Shown piece by piece: positions 5,882 to 43,625 of a stretch of 44,887 nucleotides of DNA; the first letter of the stretch is position 1, and each line of letters begins with the position of its first letter. Source of the DNA: Escherichia phage vB_EcoS_Sponge; the sequence record NC_073081.1; one strand, given 5' to 3'. The translations under genes were made by a program, and so were the position numbers. The notes below the pieces were generated by a model that saw nothing but the letters and a program-made list of their open reading frames with translations, ran no database searches and was not told where the DNA came from.

Positions 5882-6489
5882 CCACATTTAAATTATACGG
5901 CGTTTTAGGACGTCGATTCGGTAAAGTGCATAAGCTGGACTGCTTCACTCCGGGCGAGGGTATCACCGGCCTGTGCGTGAAGTTACCCGGCTTACAGGAC
6001 TTTCTAATGTCGGCCCACCTGGACAATATGATGTTCAAGGTGCGCAAAGGCGACCACACGATGACCGGCTATGATGAGCTGGGCGAGTTCCACGGCAACC
6101 GCGTCGTTACCATCGCTCCGGTTATGACGGGCGCAAAAAGAGGGTTGGGACAATTGCTGGCGGGTGTCGCGATCGTAGTGGCGTCGTTCTATACGGGCGG
6201 ACTTGCTACTGCCGCTTTCGGGGCTTCGGCTGCAACCGCTGCCGCTATCGGGACGGCGACGTTTTCGTTCGGGATGTCGATGGCGCTGGGTGGCGTTATG
6301 CAATTGCTGTCGCCACAACCGAAAGGATTGCAGACAAGGCAGGACGTGGATAACAAAGCGTCGTACGCGTTCGGCGGGCCAGTGAATACAACAGCGCAAG
6401 GCACGGCGCTTGGTGTATTATGGGGCGAGCGTGAGATCGGCGGCGCTATTATTTCAGCCGGAATAGTAACCGAGGACTTGAACGAATGA
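5872..6489 (+). CDS. tail assembly protein I-like
   Basis: 205-aa ORF overlapping K end and J start (ATGA at 6486); Gly/Ala-rich hydrophobic C-terminus; synteny. Confidence 0.55.
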   Translation: MAMTTFKLYGVLGRRFGKVHKLDCFTPGEGITGLCVKLPGLQDFLMSAHLDNMMFKVRKGDHTMTGYDELGEFHGNRVVTIAPVMTGAKRGLGQLLAGVAIVVASFYTGGLATAAFGASAATAAAIGTATFSFGMSMALGGVMQLLSPQPKGLQTRQDVDNKASYAFGGPVNTTAQGTALGVLWGEREIGGAIISAGIVTEDLNE

Positions 6490-9400
6490 CGATTATCTAC
6501 GACGTCACAGGGCATAAAGGCGGCGGCGGCAAACAGCACACCCCACAGGAGACGCCAGACAGCCTGCATTCGCTGGCTAAAATCCGCATCTTGCTTGCGC
6601 TGGGGGAAGGGGAATTCGAAAGTATTACCAGCGCCAGCGAATTGCGGCAGCGTGTTTACTTGGATGGAACGCCGATCCAGAACGCTGACCTGTCCGAAAA
6701 CTTCCCTGGCGCGCGTGTGGAGTTCCGCCCTGGCACACAGCACCAGGATGTGATCCACGGATTTTCAGCGGTGGAAAGTGAGCAATCTGTCGGCGTAAAA
6801 CTGGAAAACGGCACGCCGTGGGTGCGCCAGATTAACGATACCAGTCTGGACGCTGTTCGCATTCGCATCGGCATTCCAGCCCTGTACACTAACGAAGATA
6901 ATGGCGACCTGGTGGGCGGGCGCATCGACTATAAGATAGTTGTGTATACGGATAACGCCGACCCGCGTGAGTTCAGATTCGCCGCCGTTGGTAAAACAAT
7001 GTCGCTATATGAGCGCGACCACCGCATCGAATTACCTCCGAACGTTAACACCGGCTGGCGCGTGGAGGTGCACCGCATAACGGCAGACTCCACATCGGCG
7101 AAAGTGGTTAATGATATCCGGGTGCAGTCCATCACTGAGATTATTGACGCCCGCCTGCGTTACCCGCTAACCGCGCTGTTGTTTGTGGAGTTCGACGCCA
7201 AAGCGTTCCAGAACATCCCGCGCGTGTCCATCAAGTGCAAAGGCCGCAAAGTTCTAATACCGAACAACTACGACCCGATTAACCATACCTATTCCGGGGA
7301 CTGGGACGGCACGTTTAAACGCGCATGGACGGATAACCCTGCGTGGCACTGGTACGATATTTGTATTACTGAGCGCTTCGGCCTCGGTCGGCGTATCAAA
7401 CCGCAAATGTTAAACCGGTACGCGCTCTACCAGATTTCGCAGCGCTGCGATCAGTTGGTCAGCGACGGCAACGGTGGTCGAGAAATCCGCTTTAAGAATG
7501 ATATGTACATCCAGTCGCAGACAGACGCCTGGACCGTGCTTAAGGATTTGGCTGCCATCTTTGCTGGGATGACCTGGTGGGGCAACCAGATGTTGAATAT
7601 CGTCAGTGACCAACCGGTCGCAGCAGTGTCGCACACTATCACCAACGCCTCGGTAATTGATGGGCGATTCGACTACGCATCTGGTAGCCAGAAAACGCGC
7701 TATTCCACATTCGCGGTAGCATACGGCAATCCGAAAAACCACTATGAAGATGCTATCGCAACGGGGCAACGTGTCGAACTGGTACGCCGCCATAAGATTA
7801 ACCGTCTTGATATTACGGCGATCGGCTGTACGCGTGAATCTGAAGCGCAACGCCGCGGGCACTGGGCGCTAATTTCCAACCAGCTTGACCAGCAAGTTAG
7901 CTTTAAAGTTGGCATGGAAGGGTTATTCTTTATTCCAGGTAGCGTAGTCGCGATCGCGGATACAAACATTTCTGGCGGTTTTGAGACGCGCGGCGGTCGG
8001 CTGTTGTCGGACCCCGGAACGCGTACCGTGCTGAACACGGACAGCGAAATCACATTCCGCCCTGGCGATAAGTTCCTGGTGCGCACCGATAGCGGTAATG
8101 TGGAGACTCGCGAGATCGCCAGCGTCAACGGCAACAAGGTAACGCTAAAAACCGCACTGGACGCCAACCCTATTCCTGACCAGCCGTTTTGCGTTGACGG
8201 GGATGATATCCAGTTGCAAAAATTCCGCATCACCGATCTGGAATATGACGACTCTACGAGCACTTTCTCGGTGCGCGGGATTGAATATAACGATAGCAAA
8301 TATGATGCCGTTGATAATGGCGCGCGCCTAGACCCGGGCATCTTTACACAAGTGCCGGACGGTGTAATGAAGGGGCCGGAATCCGTGACTATAACTCCGT
8401 CGCAGATTTCATCGCAAGGCCAGCTAATCACCAACGTGGATATTGTTTTCCCGCCGGTGAAAGATGCCGTGGTGTATGAAATCCAGTGGAGGCGTACTAG
8501 CCTGCAGAATATGGAAATCCAGTGGGGTAACGACTGGGTGAATATCCCGCGCACGGCGTCGAATGGGGCGCACATCCCCAACGTGTTCTCCGGTAACTAC
8601 CAGGCACGCGTCCGCGCGATCGGTATGGGTGAAATCTCGTCCCCGTGGGTGTCGTCACCCATCACGCCGATCGAAGGTCGCCTCGGTGGGCTTAATGCGC
8701 CAATCATCACCAACGCGATTTCAGGTTTGCACCAGATCCTATGGAAGTGGAACCACAACAACGCCGCGACGGATATCTCCTACACAGAGCTTGAAGTGCG
8801 CAAGACGGGCGAAACGGAATGGAAATTCCTGTCCAACGTCCCATACCCTGGGGCAGAGTATGCGCAAACGTCGCTGGAGTTCGGGATTTACCAGCAGTTG
8901 CGCGCCCGTGTGGTGGATAAAATCGGCAACCGGTCGGACTGGTCGGCCCCGTTTGAAGGGCAGGTGAGTGACAAAGTTGACGAGTACATGAAGGGGCTTG
9001 AGGACGAGTTCTTGACTTCCGAGGATGGTAAACGCTTCCAGGAAGCAATCAACACGATCCCGCAGGGTATTTACGAGGCGATGCTCACCGACGCGCAGCA
9101 ATTGTTCAACGCCCGCGCCGAGTACAAGGGGATTTATGCGGAAATCTCGGTCGCGTATAACGTGGCGGCGGACGCCCACAAGGCGGTCGCTCAACTGGAG
9201 ACGTTGATCGGCACGCGACTTGATGACGCGGAAGCTGCGATCCACACGTTGCAGACCGCGCAGAGCACACAGGAACAAGCGTTCGCCCAGTATCAGCAAA
9301 CTGTTGCCGCTAAGTTCGGGGAACAGGAAGCCGCCATCCAGCAGGTACAAACGGCAACCGCAGACGTGGCGGGAGCGCTGGCGGAATATAAGACCCAGGT

Positions 9401-9905
9401 CGCGACACAGTTCGGTCAGCAGTCCGCCGCTATCGAGCAGAAGATGACGTCCTCGTTTAACCACTCTGGTGGTAGCGCCACGTATAGCCTTAAGGCGGGC
9501 GTGACGTATAACGGGACTTACTATGATGCGGGTATGCAGCTTTCCGTTGTGACGTCTGGCAACGCGGTTAAATCGCGTATTGCGTTCAAGGCGGACCAGT
9601 TCTACATCATGCACCCATCTAATGGGTCGCTTTCGTCCGCGTTTATTGTTGACGGTGGTCAGGTGTACATCGACACCGCCCGCATCAAGAATGCGTCCAT
9701 TAACTTTGCGCAGATAACGGACACGTTGCAGTCCAACAACTACGACGGCAGTACTCGAGGATGGCGCTTAGGTAAGGATGGAACGTTTATCAACCTGGGG
9801 ACTGGAAGCGGTGGTGGTACAAAGCAGACCAACACCAACTACAGCGTTAAAGACGCGAACGGTGTTTTACGCGTGCAAATTGGCGAGCTTACGGGTCGCT
9901 GGTAG
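6486..9905 (+). CDS. central tail fibre / host specificity protein J-like
   Basis: 1139-aa ORF; N-terminus HKGGGGKQHTPQETPDSLHSLAKIRILLALGEGEF resembles the gpJ N-terminus; follows K and I genes; terminator downstream. Confidence 0.85.
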   Translation: MTIIYDVTGHKGGGGKQHTPQETPDSLHSLAKIRILLALGEGEFESITSASELRQRVYLDGTPIQNADLSENFPGARVEFRPGTQHQDVIHGFSAVESEQSVGVKLENGTPWVRQINDTSLDAVRIRIGIPALYTNEDNGDLVGGRIDYKIVVYTDNADPREFRFAAVGKTMSLYERDHRIELPPNVNTGWRVEVHRITADSTSAKVVNDIRVQSITEIIDARLRYPLTALLFVEFDAKAFQNIPRVSIKCKGRKVLIPNNYDPINHTYSGDWDGTFKRAWTDNPAWHWYDICITERFGLGRRIKPQMLNRYALYQISQRCDQLVSDGNGGREIRFKNDMYIQSQTDAWTVLKDLAAIFAGMTWWGNQMLNIVSDQPVAAVSHTITNASVIDGRFDYASGSQKTRYSTFAVAYGNPKNHYEDAIATGQRVELVRRHKINRLDITAIGCTRESEAQRRGHWALISNQLDQQVSFKVGMEGLFFIPGSVVAIADTNISGGFETRGGRLLSDPGTRTVLNTDSEITFRPGDKFLVRTDSGNVETREIASVNGNKVTLKTALDANPIPDQPFCVDGDDIQLQKFRITDLEYDDSTSTFSVRGIEYNDSKYDAVDNGARLDPGIFTQVPDGVMKGPESVTITPSQISSQGQLITNVDIVFPPVKDAVVYEIQWRRTSLQNMEIQWGNDWVNIPRTASNGAHIPNVFSGNYQARVRAIGMGEISSPWVSSPITPIEGRLGGLNAPIITNAISGLHQILWKWNHNNAATDISYTELEVRKTGETEWKFLSNVPYPGAEYAQTSLEFGIYQQLRARVVDKIGNRSDWSAPFEGQVSDKVDEYMKGLEDEFLTSEDGKRFQEAINTIPQGIYEAMLTDAQQLFNARAEYKGIYAEISVAYNVAADAHKAVAQLETLIGTRLDDAEAAIHTLQTAQSTQEQAFAQYQQTVAAKFGEQEAAIQQVQTATADVAGALAEYKTQVATQFGQQSAAIEQKMTSSFNHSGGSATYSLKAGVTYNGTYYDAGMQLSVVTSGNAVKSRIAFKADQFYIMHPSNGSLSSAFIVDGGQVYIDTARIKNASINFAQITDTLQSNNYDGSTRGWRLGKDGTFINLGTGSGGGTKQTNTNYSVKDANGVLRVQIGELTGRW

Positions 9906-9940: not shown

Positions 9941-10243
9941 ATGGCATTCGGTATCGCAACGTGGGACGCGCAAGGACGCCCAAACAACTACGGCATTAAA
10001 CCGGTAAGCGTGATCGGAAGGATTCATCTTGCGGAAGGACAAAAATCAGGCGCATGGTCATTCCCTGTACCGGCGGGGATGAAGGTCGGATACGTGGTCG
10101 CACTGGATAAAGGCGCGGTCGGGCCAGGACGCAGAATAACCGCCAGCGGGAACACTATCACTGTTTCCGCGGCAAGTGCGGTGGGTGGCGGGGTTTACTC
10201 CGCATCTGAATGTGACGTTATTGTTTTTGTGGAGCGAGCATAA
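9941..10243 (+). CDS. hypothetical protein (tail-associated region)
   Basis: 100-aa ORF, ATG 9941 with GAGG SD; no recognisable motif. Confidence 0.45.
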   Translation: MAFGIATWDAQGRPNNYGIKPVSVIGRIHLAEGQKSGAWSFPVPAGMKVGYVVALDKGAVGPGRRITASGNTITVSAASAVGGGVYSASECDVIVFVERA

Positions 10244-10917
10244 TGGCTAATTACGGCGCGTTGATTGACTTACCAAACGGCAACCCGTTTATCACGCCAG
10301 AATCGACGCCGTTTTGTCTATTCCGCCGTGTGGTTGTTGGGTCTTCGGCTAACGGCACTGCGCAGTCGGCGGCTGCCGATATTAATTTGGGCGGTGACTA
10401 CCCTGCAATAGCGTTTGTGAAAACTACGCACACCACCCAGCCGACCGTCGTAGGGTCTTCTCGCGTTGGTAATGTGGTGAAGGTGAGCGCCAGCAATCCA
10501 TTCGGGCAAGGCTTCACGATGACGGCTTACATCTTTGCCATATTCCCACAGACCCTTCCGCGGTGGGGCTTCGCTATTTGGGATAAGACGGGGAAGCTAG
10601 TGCTTACTAATGAGAGTCGCGTACTAAGCGATTTAGTTACCGTCGGATCGCCAGGCGCTAACGGGGGGATTAACATTGACCAGACGCTAAATGGCAGCTA
10701 CGCCGTCGCTCCAGGCATATTGGGGTCTACGCTGATCCGGTTTTTTGTGCAGGGCCAGCCGCAAGTAATATCGGTAACGGCGTACACGGGGGCCAGATTT
10801 GATGGGTCACGAACGCGTATATCGGCAGCGTCGTCGGGGAACGCCACGGGGGATGTGGTGGGGTATACTAACAACGGCAACGCGATTATGGCGATTAACA
10901 CGGCCAATTATGATTGA
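10243..10917 (+). CDS. hypothetical protein (tail-associated region)
   Basis: 224-aa ORF, TAATG overlap with upstream gene; Gly/Ser/Thr-rich, no recognisable catalytic motif. Confidence 0.45.
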   Translation: MANYGALIDLPNGNPFITPESTPFCLFRRVVVGSSANGTAQSAAADINLGGDYPAIAFVKTTHTTQPTVVGSSRVGNVVKVSASNPFGQGFTMTAYIFAIFPQTLPRWGFAIWDKTGKLVLTNESRVLSDLVTVGSPGANGGINIDQTLNGSYAVAPGILGSTLIRFFVQGQPQVISVTAYTGARFDGSRTRISAASSGNATGDVVGYTNNGNAIMAINTANYD

Positions 10918-10920
10918 AGA

Positions 10921-10943
10921 AAGCCCCGAAAGGGGCTTATTTG
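10921..10943. terminator. bidirectional hairpin terminator between convergent genes
   Basis: aagcccc-gaaa-ggggctt stem-loop followed by TTATTT on + strand; stop of the minus lipoprotein gene lies in the 3-prime arm. Confidence 0.5.
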
Positions 10944-11155
10944 CAGGTTGTGCTTTTGAAATGGTCTACAGACACGTACTGGAAGTTGAACGGGTACCCA
11001 GCCCGGAGCATTTTGTGCCCGCTAACGTCTGCAACCCCAAACACCGGGACGGAATACTCCATACCACTATTCATATATGTCGCGTCGCAGATTTTAGACG
11101 GCATACCTGCACAACCAGACAGAAGAACCGCACAAATCATAATTAAAGTTTTCAT
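10937..11155 (-). CDS. small lipoprotein, candidate receptor-blocking superinfection-exclusion protein (Llp/Cor-like by position)
   Basis: 72-aa ORF on the opposite strand inside the tail module; signal peptide with lipobox LLSGC; strong SD (AGGAG) before ATG 11155. Confidence 0.5.
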   Translation of the reverse strand: MKTLIMICAVLLSGCAGMPSKICDATYMNSGMEYSVPVFGVADVSGHKMLRAGYPFNFQYVSVDHFKSTTCK

Positions 11156-11234
11156 GTTATCATCTCCTATATTTGGTTGAGTTTAGTATTACACCGCTCA
11201 ACCGGGATTGCAACCAATTTATGAGGATTCAGCT

Positions 11235-13319
11235 ATGGCAGCGGGTACACTATCCGTAACGAATAACAGCAAGGCGGTTGTCGGGGTAGGCACGACGTTT
11301 ACCGCGTTTAAAGCTGGCGACTTCTTAACGCTGGTGGTAGGACAAGTACCCTACACCGTAGCGATTGCGTCCATTGAAAGCAACACTGCTCTTACTCTGG
11401 TGCTGCCGTTCGACGGCCCAACGGCGACCGGCCTTGCGTGGGACGGCGTTAAGCGCGATACCATGTCGCTGGCAACGATGGGCGTAACGGTCCAGGCGCA
11501 GAAAGCATTACGCTTGATGATCGCAGATGAAAACAACTGGCGTGCAATCTTCGGCGACGCTGAAGAAATCACGGTAACGCTACCGAACGGGCAAGTTATG
11601 CAGGGCATGTCGTGGGGATATTTGTCCTCCTTGCTGAAGGAAGTAGACCCCGTTGAGATGCGCAACCTTCAACAACAGGCCGAGACGGCGAAAAACCAAG
11701 CTGTTACCGCTAAGGGGCAGGCAGAATCGGCGCGCGACGCAGCTAATACGGCGAAGACTGGGGCGGAGACGGCACGCGACCAGGCTAACAATGCGAAGAC
11801 CGACGCGCAGACCGCAAAAGGCCAGGCCGAATCCGCGCGCGACGCCGCTAACACTGCGAAGACCGGGGCGGAGAATGCCCGCAACCAGGCACAAGGCTAT
11901 CGTGACGAGGCTGAAGGCTTTAAAAACCAGATTAACCCTTCGCAGTTTATGCAGAAGTCGCAAAACCTGAATGACGTTGCCGATAAAGCGAAGGCCCGCA
12001 CTAACCTGGCGTTAAATCGTTTCAACCAGCCGCGCGCCGATTTAACCGAGGTGTACTCTAACGACGACCGTACGGGGTACAAGCTGATTGTAAAAGATAA
12101 CGGCGACTGGGGTGCGATGAAACACGATGGTAGCGCGAATATGGCGCTAAGCATCGGTTTTGGTGGTACTGGCGGCAAGACCGGGGCTGAAGCACGTGCG
12201 TCGCTGAACGTATTTAAACGTGACCGAACATCACTAGGAGAGAGAGATCTGGATACTATCGACGGCAGCGGCGACGGTCCAGGGGTGTATTTCCAGGCGT
12301 CGTCAGCCGCGGCAACGTTAGCGCGCCACTACCCGGAAGCGACAGCGGGGATGCTGGAGGTATTCCAGCACGGGGCAAATGGTGAGTCGGGGGCTATCCA
12401 GCGCTACACGCCGTTTACGATCTTAGCTATTGCGCCGGAAGGCAGCCAGGAATATGCGCGCGCGGGAAAAGGCACATTCTATGTGCGGTCGAAAAACGGT
12501 AACGCCCCTAAATGGTCGCCGTGGTTGCCGTTTCAGACTGGTCTTTATGGTGGCGTTGTCAGTTATCCGGGTACGCAGGAGCGCTCAAGCTGGACGGATT
12601 ATGTCAACGTACTCGCACAACAACCAAGCAGCATGGGGACGTATAACATTCGTTCAGTAGGTTGGGTGAATGCCATCTCATCCCGACACCGTAACGGCAT
12701 CGGCGATGGCCGCAATTACGGTGTTGTTTTTGAGGATGGGCAAATGGCGGCTACCCACTACAAAAACGTAACAGTAAGAAAACAGGTAGCTGGTAACTGG
12801 ATTAACCCCGTCACGTTATGGCATACAGGAAACACCACGGTTGACAGCAACGGCTTTGTGAAGCGCGCATCCCCAATCGTGAAGGTGTTCGGGACCGGTG
12901 ATTTCGAGACTAACGACGAAAGCGAAGGATGCAAGGTCGAGAAAGTAGGCGTAGGAGAGTATCTCATCACCGGATGTATGGCGCTTAACGCTGATCTGGC
13001 CTGGGGTGGCGTGCGTGGCGGTATTGAGGTGCCGAGGGATATTAACGGTCAGCCTATTTTGTGGGTGGATTATGAAGTCAACGCAGACGGTAGTCTTCTG
13101 CTTAAGACGTTCCATCGTGAACATCACGACGCGCCGGTGTTCGCACGTAATACGGTGCCGGGTTACTCAAACGGCGACCCTATTGATATTCCTAACGATG
13201 TTTTTGTGTCAGTGCGTGTGGACATGCCAGAAGATTCGATTTACAACGTACGGGAGCGTGAGATGCGAGCGATTGCTGAGGTTGAGTTAGCAACGGGGGG
13301 TAAGGTGACCGAAGAGTGA
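11235..13319 (+). CDS. tail fibre protein
   Basis: 694 aa from ATG 11235 (GAGGA SD); track start 11208 is TTG. Contains Ala/Lys/Gln-rich coiled-coil repeats (GQAESARDAANTAKTGAE x2) typical of fibre shafts. Confidence 0.7.
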   Translation: MAAGTLSVTNNSKAVVGVGTTFTAFKAGDFLTLVVGQVPYTVAIASIESNTALTLVLPFDGPTATGLAWDGVKRDTMSLATMGVTVQAQKALRLMIADENNWRAIFGDAEEITVTLPNGQVMQGMSWGYLSSLLKEVDPVEMRNLQQQAETAKNQAVTAKGQAESARDAANTAKTGAETARDQANNAKTDAQTAKGQAESARDAANTAKTGAENARNQAQGYRDEAEGFKNQINPSQFMQKSQNLNDVADKAKARTNLALNRFNQPRADLTEVYSNDDRTGYKLIVKDNGDWGAMKHDGSANMALSIGFGGTGGKTGAEARASLNVFKRDRTSLGERDLDTIDGSGDGPGVYFQASSAAATLARHYPEATAGMLEVFQHGANGESGAIQRYTPFTILAIAPEGSQEYARAGKGTFYVRSKNGNAPKWSPWLPFQTGLYGGVVSYPGTQERSSWTDYVNVLAQQPSSMGTYNIRSVGWVNAISSRHRNGIGDGRNYGVVFEDGQMAATHYKNVTVRKQVAGNWINPVTLWHTGNTTVDSNGFVKRASPIVKVFGTGDFETNDESEGCKVEKVGVGEYLITGCMALNADLAWGGVRGGIEVPRDINGQPILWVDYEVNADGSLLLKTFHREHHDAPVFARNTVPGYSNGDPIDIPNDVFVSVRVDMPEDSIYNVREREMRAIAEVELATGGKVTEE

Positions 13320-42676: not shown

Positions 42677-43030
42677 ATGGCGGGCTTTAATTACGCAGGA
42701 TTAAAGCGGAAAGTGAATCCGCTGATTAAAAAGTTCGGCATGACCGTTACGGTTACGCGTCCTGGGTCGGTTGACCGCGTAGACGGCGACGAAGTGATAA
42801 TCCCGCCAACGTCGTTCGACGTCATCGGTCTTCGAGAGGAGTACAAGCCGAGCGAGATCGACGGGACGCGTATCGTTGCCGGTGATGTGAAGTTTTTGTG
42901 TCAGGCCGTCAAGCAGGTAAAGGTCGGGGATTTGGTTAGCCTGAACAATACAGACTACCGGGTTATCAATCCCAACCCCCTGCAACCGGCGGGCCAGACC
43001 ATGCTGTTTCAACTACAGCTAAGGGGCTAA
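42677..43030 (+). CDS. head-tail joining protein (hypothetical)
   Basis: 117 aa from ATG 42677, 7 nt after AGGAGG; synteny only. Confidence 0.45.
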   Translation: MAGFNYAGLKRKVNPLIKKFGMTVTVTRPGSVDRVDGDEVIIPPTSFDVIGLREEYKPSEIDGTRIVAGDVKFLCQAVKQVKVGDLVSLNNTDYRVINPNPLQPAGQTMLFQLQLRG

Positions 43031-43031
43031 C

Positions 43032-43625
43032 GTGGCTGAAGTCTACTCGTTCGCCGCCACTATTGCTACGTGGGTGGATAAGACGAAGGAGAACAACGAC
43101 AAGGCGGTGCGGGCGTACGGTATGCAAATACTCGGACGCCTGATCGAGATCTCCCCAGTGGGCGACCCCCGCCGGTGGAAAATTAACAGGGCTTACGCGC
43201 TCGCCCGCCAGCACGCAAACAAGGTGAACGCCGCACAGCGTCGCAAGAATGGCGGCAAACTGAAGCGTGGACAGAAGAAGCACGCAAGTGTGCTGGTATC
43301 ATTCAAGACTAAAAACGGCAACGTCACGTTCCGCCAGCGTGGCTGGGCTGCGAAGAATTACACCGGCGGACGCTTCCGGGGAAACTGGCAGGTTACGTTC
43401 GACCGCCCGGCTGTTGGCGCTATTGACCGCGTGGACAAGGCCGGAACGGCAACATTAGCCGCTGGGCGTGAAGTGTTAGCGCACTATGATTCGAGTGAAT
43501 ACGGGTCGATCTGGTTTACTAACAACGTGCCATACGCGCAGCGACTTGAGTATGGCTGGAGTAAACAAGCGCCAGCGGGGATTGTTCGCGTCGTAGCGGC
43601 AGAAATTAATTCGAAGGTGAAATAA
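43032..43625 (+). CDS. neck / tail completion protein (hypothetical)
   Basis: 197-aa ORF with GTG start after AAGGGG; synteny only. Confidence 0.45.
   Translation: MAEVYSFAATIATWVDKTKENNDKAVRAYGMQILGRLIEISPVGDPRRWKINRAYALARQHANKVNAAQRRKNGGKLKRGQKKHASVLVSFKTKNGNVTFRQRGWAAKNYTGGRFRGNWQVTFDRPAVGAIDRVDKAGTATLAAGREVLAHYDSSEYGSIWFTNNVPYAQRLEYGWSKQAPAGIVRVVAAEINSKVK

Follow-up and report, generated by a model that had tools for sequence, protein, structure and literature searches.

We analyzed the 44,887 nucleotides deposited for Escherichia phage vB_EcoS_Sponge (NC_073081.1; this whole stretch is referred to below as the window) around a small gene that lies on the strand opposite to its tail genes. 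In megablast searches, the region of this gene, cor, and the first 25 kb of the window both fall in the genus Dhillonvirus (HK578/SO1-like coliphages), and the window is probably one complete, circularly permuted genome of this genus. The best match of the 25-kb query is Escherichia phage EC115, with 93.7% identity over 95%. This is just below the 95% identity that is the usual line between phage species, and the phage may thus be a distinct Dhillonvirus species. No integrase is annotated in EC115, and Dhillonviruses therefore appear to be virulent. The genes and signals of the locus are the following:

6486..9905, plus strand: gpJ-like central tail fibre or tail tip protein, 1139 aa (ORF; annotated J in EC115)
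9941..10243, plus strand: 100-aa protein, homolog of N15 gp22, phi80 gp22 and T1 ST32 (annotated "outer membrane protein")
10243..10917, plus strand: 224-aa protein, homolog of N15 gp23, phi80 gp23 and T1 ST31 (annotated "membrane associated protein")
10921..10938, no strand assigned: GC-rich hairpin AAGCCCC-GAAA-GGGGCTT, probable bidirectional intrinsic terminator (folding, conservation)
10937..11155, minus strand: cor, 72-aa precursor of a Cor superinfection-exclusion lipoprotein (ORF, PHROG 1119, NF047972, BLASTP, dN/dS)
11111..11155, minus strand: predicted lipoprotein signal peptide (codons 1–14) and lipid-modified Cys15 (pattern check)
11164..11168, minus strand: Shine-Dalgarno sequence AGGAG, 8 nt upstream of the cor ATG (read from the sequence)
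11185..11213, minus strand: candidate sigma-70 promoter of cor, TTGCAA, 17-nt spacer, (TGt)AATACT (read from the sequence)
11235..13319, plus strand: lateral tail-fibre gene with a probable start at ATG 11235, MAAGTLSV... (ORF; annotation of EC115 and JLBYU60)

Gene order and signals around cor

The order gpJ, 100-aa gene, 224-aa gene, cor is that of phage phi80 (gp21-gp22-gp23-cor) and of phage T1 (ST33-ST32-ST31-cor). The 100-aa protein shares 70% identity with its phi80 counterpart and 54% with that of T1; for the 224-aa protein, the values are 57% and 54%, respectively. No NCBIfam model matches either protein, and both are reported to have no structural homologs (PMC13164509). A receptor-binding or accessory role for the two proteins is suggested by the literature. 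On the other side of cor, the computed ORF of the tail-fibre gene begins at TTG 11208; annotated relatives and a GAGGA ribosome-binding site point to ATG 11235. Similarity to most relatives drops or ends near position 11683 within this gene, as would be expected where a lateral tail fibre enters its variable distal portion.

The preliminary description of this DNA had placed a 72-aa gene on the opposite strand between tail genes, and the ORF listing bears this out. Read on the minus strand, its 72 codons run from an ATG to a TAA and encode MKTLIMICAVLLSGCAGMPSKICDATYMNSGMEYSVPVFGVADVSGHKMLRAGYPFNFQYVSVDHFKSTTCK. Two ORFs of 88 and 115 aa on the plus strand overlap cor. The N-terminus of the product fits a PS51257-type lipoprotein pattern (IMICAVLLSGC), with Lys2 in the n-region, an uncharged hydrophobic core, and the lipobox LLSG|Cys15. 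The lipobox LLSGC noted from the letters thus held up, and its G14 and C15 are invariant across the 68 homologs aligned here. The mature protein is predicted to comprise 58 aa beginning at Cys15. The residue at position +2 is Ala, with no Asp. Under the E. coli +2 sorting rule, Ala at this position predicts an outer-membrane destination, and Cor is accordingly predicted to be sorted to the outer membrane.

The Shine-Dalgarno sequence and the start codon of cor are invariant in the four phages compared. The candidate promoter upstream is kept in these four phages as well; it agrees with the consensus at 8 of 12 positions, which places it under the threshold of the consensus scan, and as a weak consensus match it is proposed here from the sequence alone. 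A 7-bp inverted repeat, GGTTGAG-N15-CTCAACC (11175–11203), is located in the spacer separating cor from the tail-fibre gene, where it overlaps the candidate −10 element of cor. With the single substitutions present in JLBYU60 and Gluttony, the repeat can still pair only through G-U wobble, and this on the cor strand. We considered this repeat as a regulatory RNA and dropped it, its folding energy being no better than that of shuffled sequences (z of −0.3 to −0.8).

The 224-aa gene and cor converge, and 19 nt separate their stop codons. The hairpin at 10921–10938, with its 7-bp stem and 4-nt loop, takes up this gap and reaches into the stop codon of cor. A strict consensus scan for promoters and terminators called neither this hairpin nor a convincing cor promoter; the hairpin was therefore folded separately and its conservation checked. 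It folds with −12.4 to −14 kcal/mol (z of −2.5 on the plus strand and −3.6 on the minus strand), and the gap that contains it is 100% identical across four related phages. Its T-tracts are imperfect (TTTCTTC on the minus strand, TTATTT on the plus strand), which explains why it was missed by the scan. T1 has an annotated terminator at the equivalent position. Termination in both directions is plausible on these grounds. The label of a bidirectional terminator is thus a reasonable, if tentative, one for this hairpin, which borders only the 3' side of cor.

Family membership and predicted fold of the cor product

The product of cor matches the PHROGs family phrog_1119, "Cor superinfection exclusion protein", over its full length (E = 1.2e-28). 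It also matches the NCBIfam equivalog NF047972, "phage exclusion lipoprotein Cor", with 64.1 bits against a curated cut-off of 31 (HMM E = 9e-18), residues 2–71 aligning to positions 2–76 of the 78 in the model. The preliminary description had proposed a comparison with Cor sequences, and BLASTP gave 51% identity to T1 Cor (ST30, YP_003915.1; E = 2e-23) and 42% identity to phi80 Cor (E = 9e-21). No Pfam-A family was found for the 72-aa ORF in a Pfam search, which is no evidence against cor being a gene.

A search with the single sequence reached just six close relatives, owing to the word index, and we built a homolog profile from the Cor sequences of the window, Gluttony, phi80, and T1. The profile search returned 153 Cor homologs, of which 120 are listed. 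Among the matches listed, nearly all of the named homologs are called "cor protein" or "phage exclusion lipoprotein Cor", and their sources are coliphages and apparent prophages of enterobacteria. When 68 homologs were aligned, G14, C15, C23, G53, P55, and C71 proved invariant, and A52 and F56 were conserved in at least 90% of the sequences. The (R)AGYPF motif is conserved as well, and T1, phi80, Gluttony, and the window all carry it as RAGYPF.

Against three orthologs, the dN/dS of cor is 0.03–0.17 at a dS of 0.3–0.8, and the frame is thus under purifying selection. The protein is 97% identical to the Cor of EC115. In dozens of Dhillonvirus genomes, EC115, Gluttony, and JLBYU60 among them, the antisense ortholog already carries the annotation "super-infection exclusion protein, cor". 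[quoted passage not shown]

An AlphaFold2 model computed from the 68-sequence alignment has a mean pLDDT of 83.7, with blocks above 90 from residue 21 onward, and predicts a five-stranded beta structure in which the mature domain is confident. When the model was compared with the PDB using Foldseek, the best match of low rmsd was chain B of 8A60, that is, T5 Llp in a crystal structure on the periplasmic side of FhuA (TM 0.50/0.57 for query/target, rmsd 2.8 Å, 51 columns, 25% identity). This match falls short of statistical significance (E = 0.089), and small beta domains of the Tudor type reach scores comparable to that of Llp. Such Tudor/chromo-like small beta barrels dominate the Foldseek PDB list at an rmsd of about 6.5 Å and were set aside as generic matches between small beta domains. 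The Cor profile searched against PDB sequences gave a weak match to the same chain, 8a60_B (E = 0.018), over residues 1–44, which are partly signal peptide. In a library of viral structures (BFVD), the top match is the Cor of Dhillonvirus CEC_Kaz_2018, which is 96% identical; next come small proteins from two T5-like phages, DT571/2 (uncharacterized) and slur09 (annotated "Lipoprotein"). A published AF3 comparison gave a TM of 0.69 to Llp for a T1-like Cor (PMC13164509), and two reports conclude that Cor has the fold, and probably the mechanism, of Llp (PMC13164509; bioRxiv 10.64898/2026.03.26.714494). In our model, the mature domain may have a fold like that of T5 Llp.

Taken with the position of cor in its cassette, the NF047972 and PHROG 1119 matches, the identity to the T1 and phi80 proteins, and the possibly Llp-like predicted fold support the earlier reading of the gene as a receptor-blocking lipoprotein of Cor/Llp type. 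That reading is right and not novel, because Dhillonvirus genomes routinely carry the orthologous gene under the name Cor. The gene is an ordinary cor, as annotated in FhuA-dependent Dhillonviruses, and the connection of the Cor cassette with FhuA is already in the literature.

FhuA as the predicted target and other readings

Membership in the Cor family does not by itself fix the target, because some Cor/Llp-like proteins go with BtuB. In some Tempevirinae and T5-like phages, indeed, such proteins are associated with BtuB and not with FhuA (PMC13164509). The identification of the receptor therefore draws on the neighboring genes. Allelic variants of the locus downstream of gpJ have been matched to the terminal receptor in Drexlerviridae, Dhillonvirus, Nonagvirus, and Seuratvirus (Maffei et al., PMC8594841). 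According to the paper on KanT1, those Drexlerviridae and Dhillonvirus phages in the BASEL collection that target FhuA carry the full Cor cassette of three genes (PMC13164509). JLBYU60 is a Dhillonvirus whose dependence on FhuA was established experimentally (PMC10373560). Its 100-aa protein is identical to that of the window at 99 of 100 residues, and its 224-aa protein at 223 of 224; the last 467 aa of gpJ, its C-terminal part, are 97% identical to those of JLBYU60 J. From this near-identity of the cassette (99–100%) and of the J C-terminus to a FhuA-dependent phage, and from the literature that links the cassette to FhuA, we infer that the phage uses FhuA and that its Cor targets FhuA.

For Cor of phi80, N15, and HK022, inactivation of FhuA functions and exclusion of FhuA-dependent phages are reported (Uc-Mass 2004 and others). 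For mEp167 Cor, inactivation of FhuA was likewise shown experimentally, and Arguijo-Hernandez 2018 reports that Cor requires other outer-membrane proteins. Judged by homology and context, the Cor of the window very probably switches off the outer-membrane receptor FhuA.

The core of the mature domain is a site of divergence within the locus. Across cor codons 16–60 (positions 10976–11110), nucleotide identity is 89% to EC115 and 80% to JLBYU60, with a dS of 0.46–0.78; across the adjacent 100-aa and 224-aa genes (9941–10917), it is 98–99%, with a dS of 0.04–0.09. This pattern hints at one of two histories: a recent sweep or exchange of the receptor-binding genes among these phages, or independent recombination of cor alleles. 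It is possible, if rather unlikely in our judgment, that cor alleles have been exchanged or diversified apart from the receptor-binding genes. Cor variants of Dhillonviruses might then differ in the FhuA variants or the competing phages that they exclude, or might use a partner beyond FhuA alone.

We considered it improbable that this Cor-family lipoprotein blocks an outer-membrane receptor other than FhuA, such as BtuB or another TonB-dependent transporter. Cor/Llp-like lipoproteins are indeed carried by BtuB-using Tempevirinae and T5-like phages (PMC13164509), and several receptors are used across the genus Dhillonvirus, namely FhuA, LptD, LamB, and BtuB. However, the allele linked to FhuA is the full cassette of three genes (100 aa, 224 aa, cor), the proteins of which are 99–100% identical to those of JLBYU60 and homologous to those of T1 and phi80, whereas the BtuB-linked variants do not have the 100-aa gene or have neither of the two upstream genes (PMC13164509).

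It is still harder to credit that the gene encodes an o-spanin lipoprotein, or another accessory protein of lysis or of the envelope, instead of an exclusion factor. Judged by its sequence, the product does resemble o-spanins in being small, in having extra cysteines, and in its apparent nature as an outer-membrane lipoprotein. However, no spanin family was matched in Pfam, PHROGs, or NCBIfam, and the strong matches were to Cor models only. Moreover, cor belongs to the tail module, and about 20 kb separate it from the lysis genes (the lysin of EC115, the closest relative, is at 42685–43176), and the ORF listing holds no i-spanin partner gene overlapping it. The o-spanin reading was thus rejected on location and family matches. 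That cor is a chance or non-functional reading frame, antisense within a spacer between tail genes, as its shortness (72 aa), the missing Pfam match, and the overlapping plus-strand ORFs of 88 and 115 aa might suggest, has a negligible probability given its full-length HMM matches (E = 1e-28 and 9e-18), its conserved Shine-Dalgarno sequence and start codon, its substitution pattern (dN/dS of 0.03–0.17 at a dS of 0.3–0.8), and its confident predicted fold, and it was rejected on the HMM scores and the substitution pattern.

Proposed mechanism and comparison with known systems

The best explanation, which we hold with high confidence, is that the gene is the cor of a virulent Dhillonvirus coliphage and encodes an exclusion lipoprotein that inactivates FhuA. 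We infer FhuA as the target, and likewise where Cor binds, when it is expressed, and from which promoter. The gene would form a separate small transcription unit on the opposite strand, ending at the hairpin that it has in common with the convergent receptor-binding cassette. In the infected cell, the 72-aa precursor would be exported, and Cor would reside as a lipoprotein in the inner leaflet of the outer membrane, where its beta-rich domain of 58 aa would bind FhuA from the periplasmic side. FhuA, the terminal receptor of the phage itself, would thereby be made non-functional for phage adsorption and DNA entry. By analogy with T5 Llp, the action of Cor would probably be allosteric; a recent report states that the molecular mechanism of Cor is unresolved (bioRxiv 10.64898/2026.03.26.714494). 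Superinfecting phages that depend on FhuA, such as T1, T5, phi80, and relatives of the phage itself, would be excluded. As in T1 and T5, the progeny would presumably be spared from loss on receptor in the debris of lysed cells, and the infected cell would be protected.

The cor, 100-aa, and 224-aa genes together predict FhuA as the terminal receptor and the exclusion of T1, T5, phi80-type, and sibling phages. This prediction would be useful for the design of phage cocktails, in which phages with FhuA as their common receptor would hinder each other. Beyond a correct annotation, the meaning of the result is small: a receptor-related function is assigned to one small Dhillonvirus gene. Structural work could be directed at any Cor allele, and that of Sponge has no special claim.

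Among the known systems, Rtp45 of phage Rtp (PDB 9RPS chain D) is also a small lipoprotein, encoded in small siphophages beside a receptor-binding gene downstream of gpJ, and it binds the periplasmic face of its receptor (PMC12685063). It is however directed at LptD, the receptor being LptDE, and has no meaningful sequence similarity to the Cor of the window (E = 0.78, in the signal peptide only). As is predicted for the Cor of the window, T5 Llp is a small lipoprotein of the outer membrane that blocks FhuA from the periplasmic side, and its gene, too, lies antisense beside the receptor-binding gene of a virulent siphophage. The two differ in that identity in the structural alignment is about 25% and sequence similarity by itself is not significant. 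Furthermore, Llp is paired with pb5 (oad), an unrelated receptor-binding protein, whereas the neighbors of cor in the window are gp22/gp23-like genes.

The Cor proteins of phi80, N15, HK022, and mEp167 belong to the cassette J-gp22-gp23-cor, and the product of the window passes the NCBIfam equivalog for Cor. In phi80, cor and the tail genes share one strand, and cor expression comes from the prophage (lysogenic conversion), whereas cor of the window is antisense; phi80 Cor also has a 3-residue insertion after the lipobox. T1 Cor differs in that T1 belongs to Drexlerviridae/Tunavirus and the window to Dhillonvirus, in that about half of the residues are different, and in that the next gene downstream is a recombination gene in T1 and the lateral tail fibre in the window. 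The likeness to T1 nevertheless extends from the protein to the locus. The two products are 51% identical over their full length and share the position of the lipobox, the two cysteines of the mature domain, and the RAGYPF motif. In T1, as in the window, cor follows J, ST32, and ST31 or their counterparts, is antisense to them, and is separated from the convergent genes by a terminator, annotated in T1 and probable in the window, in the genome of a virulent siphophage that depends on FhuA or is predicted to do so.
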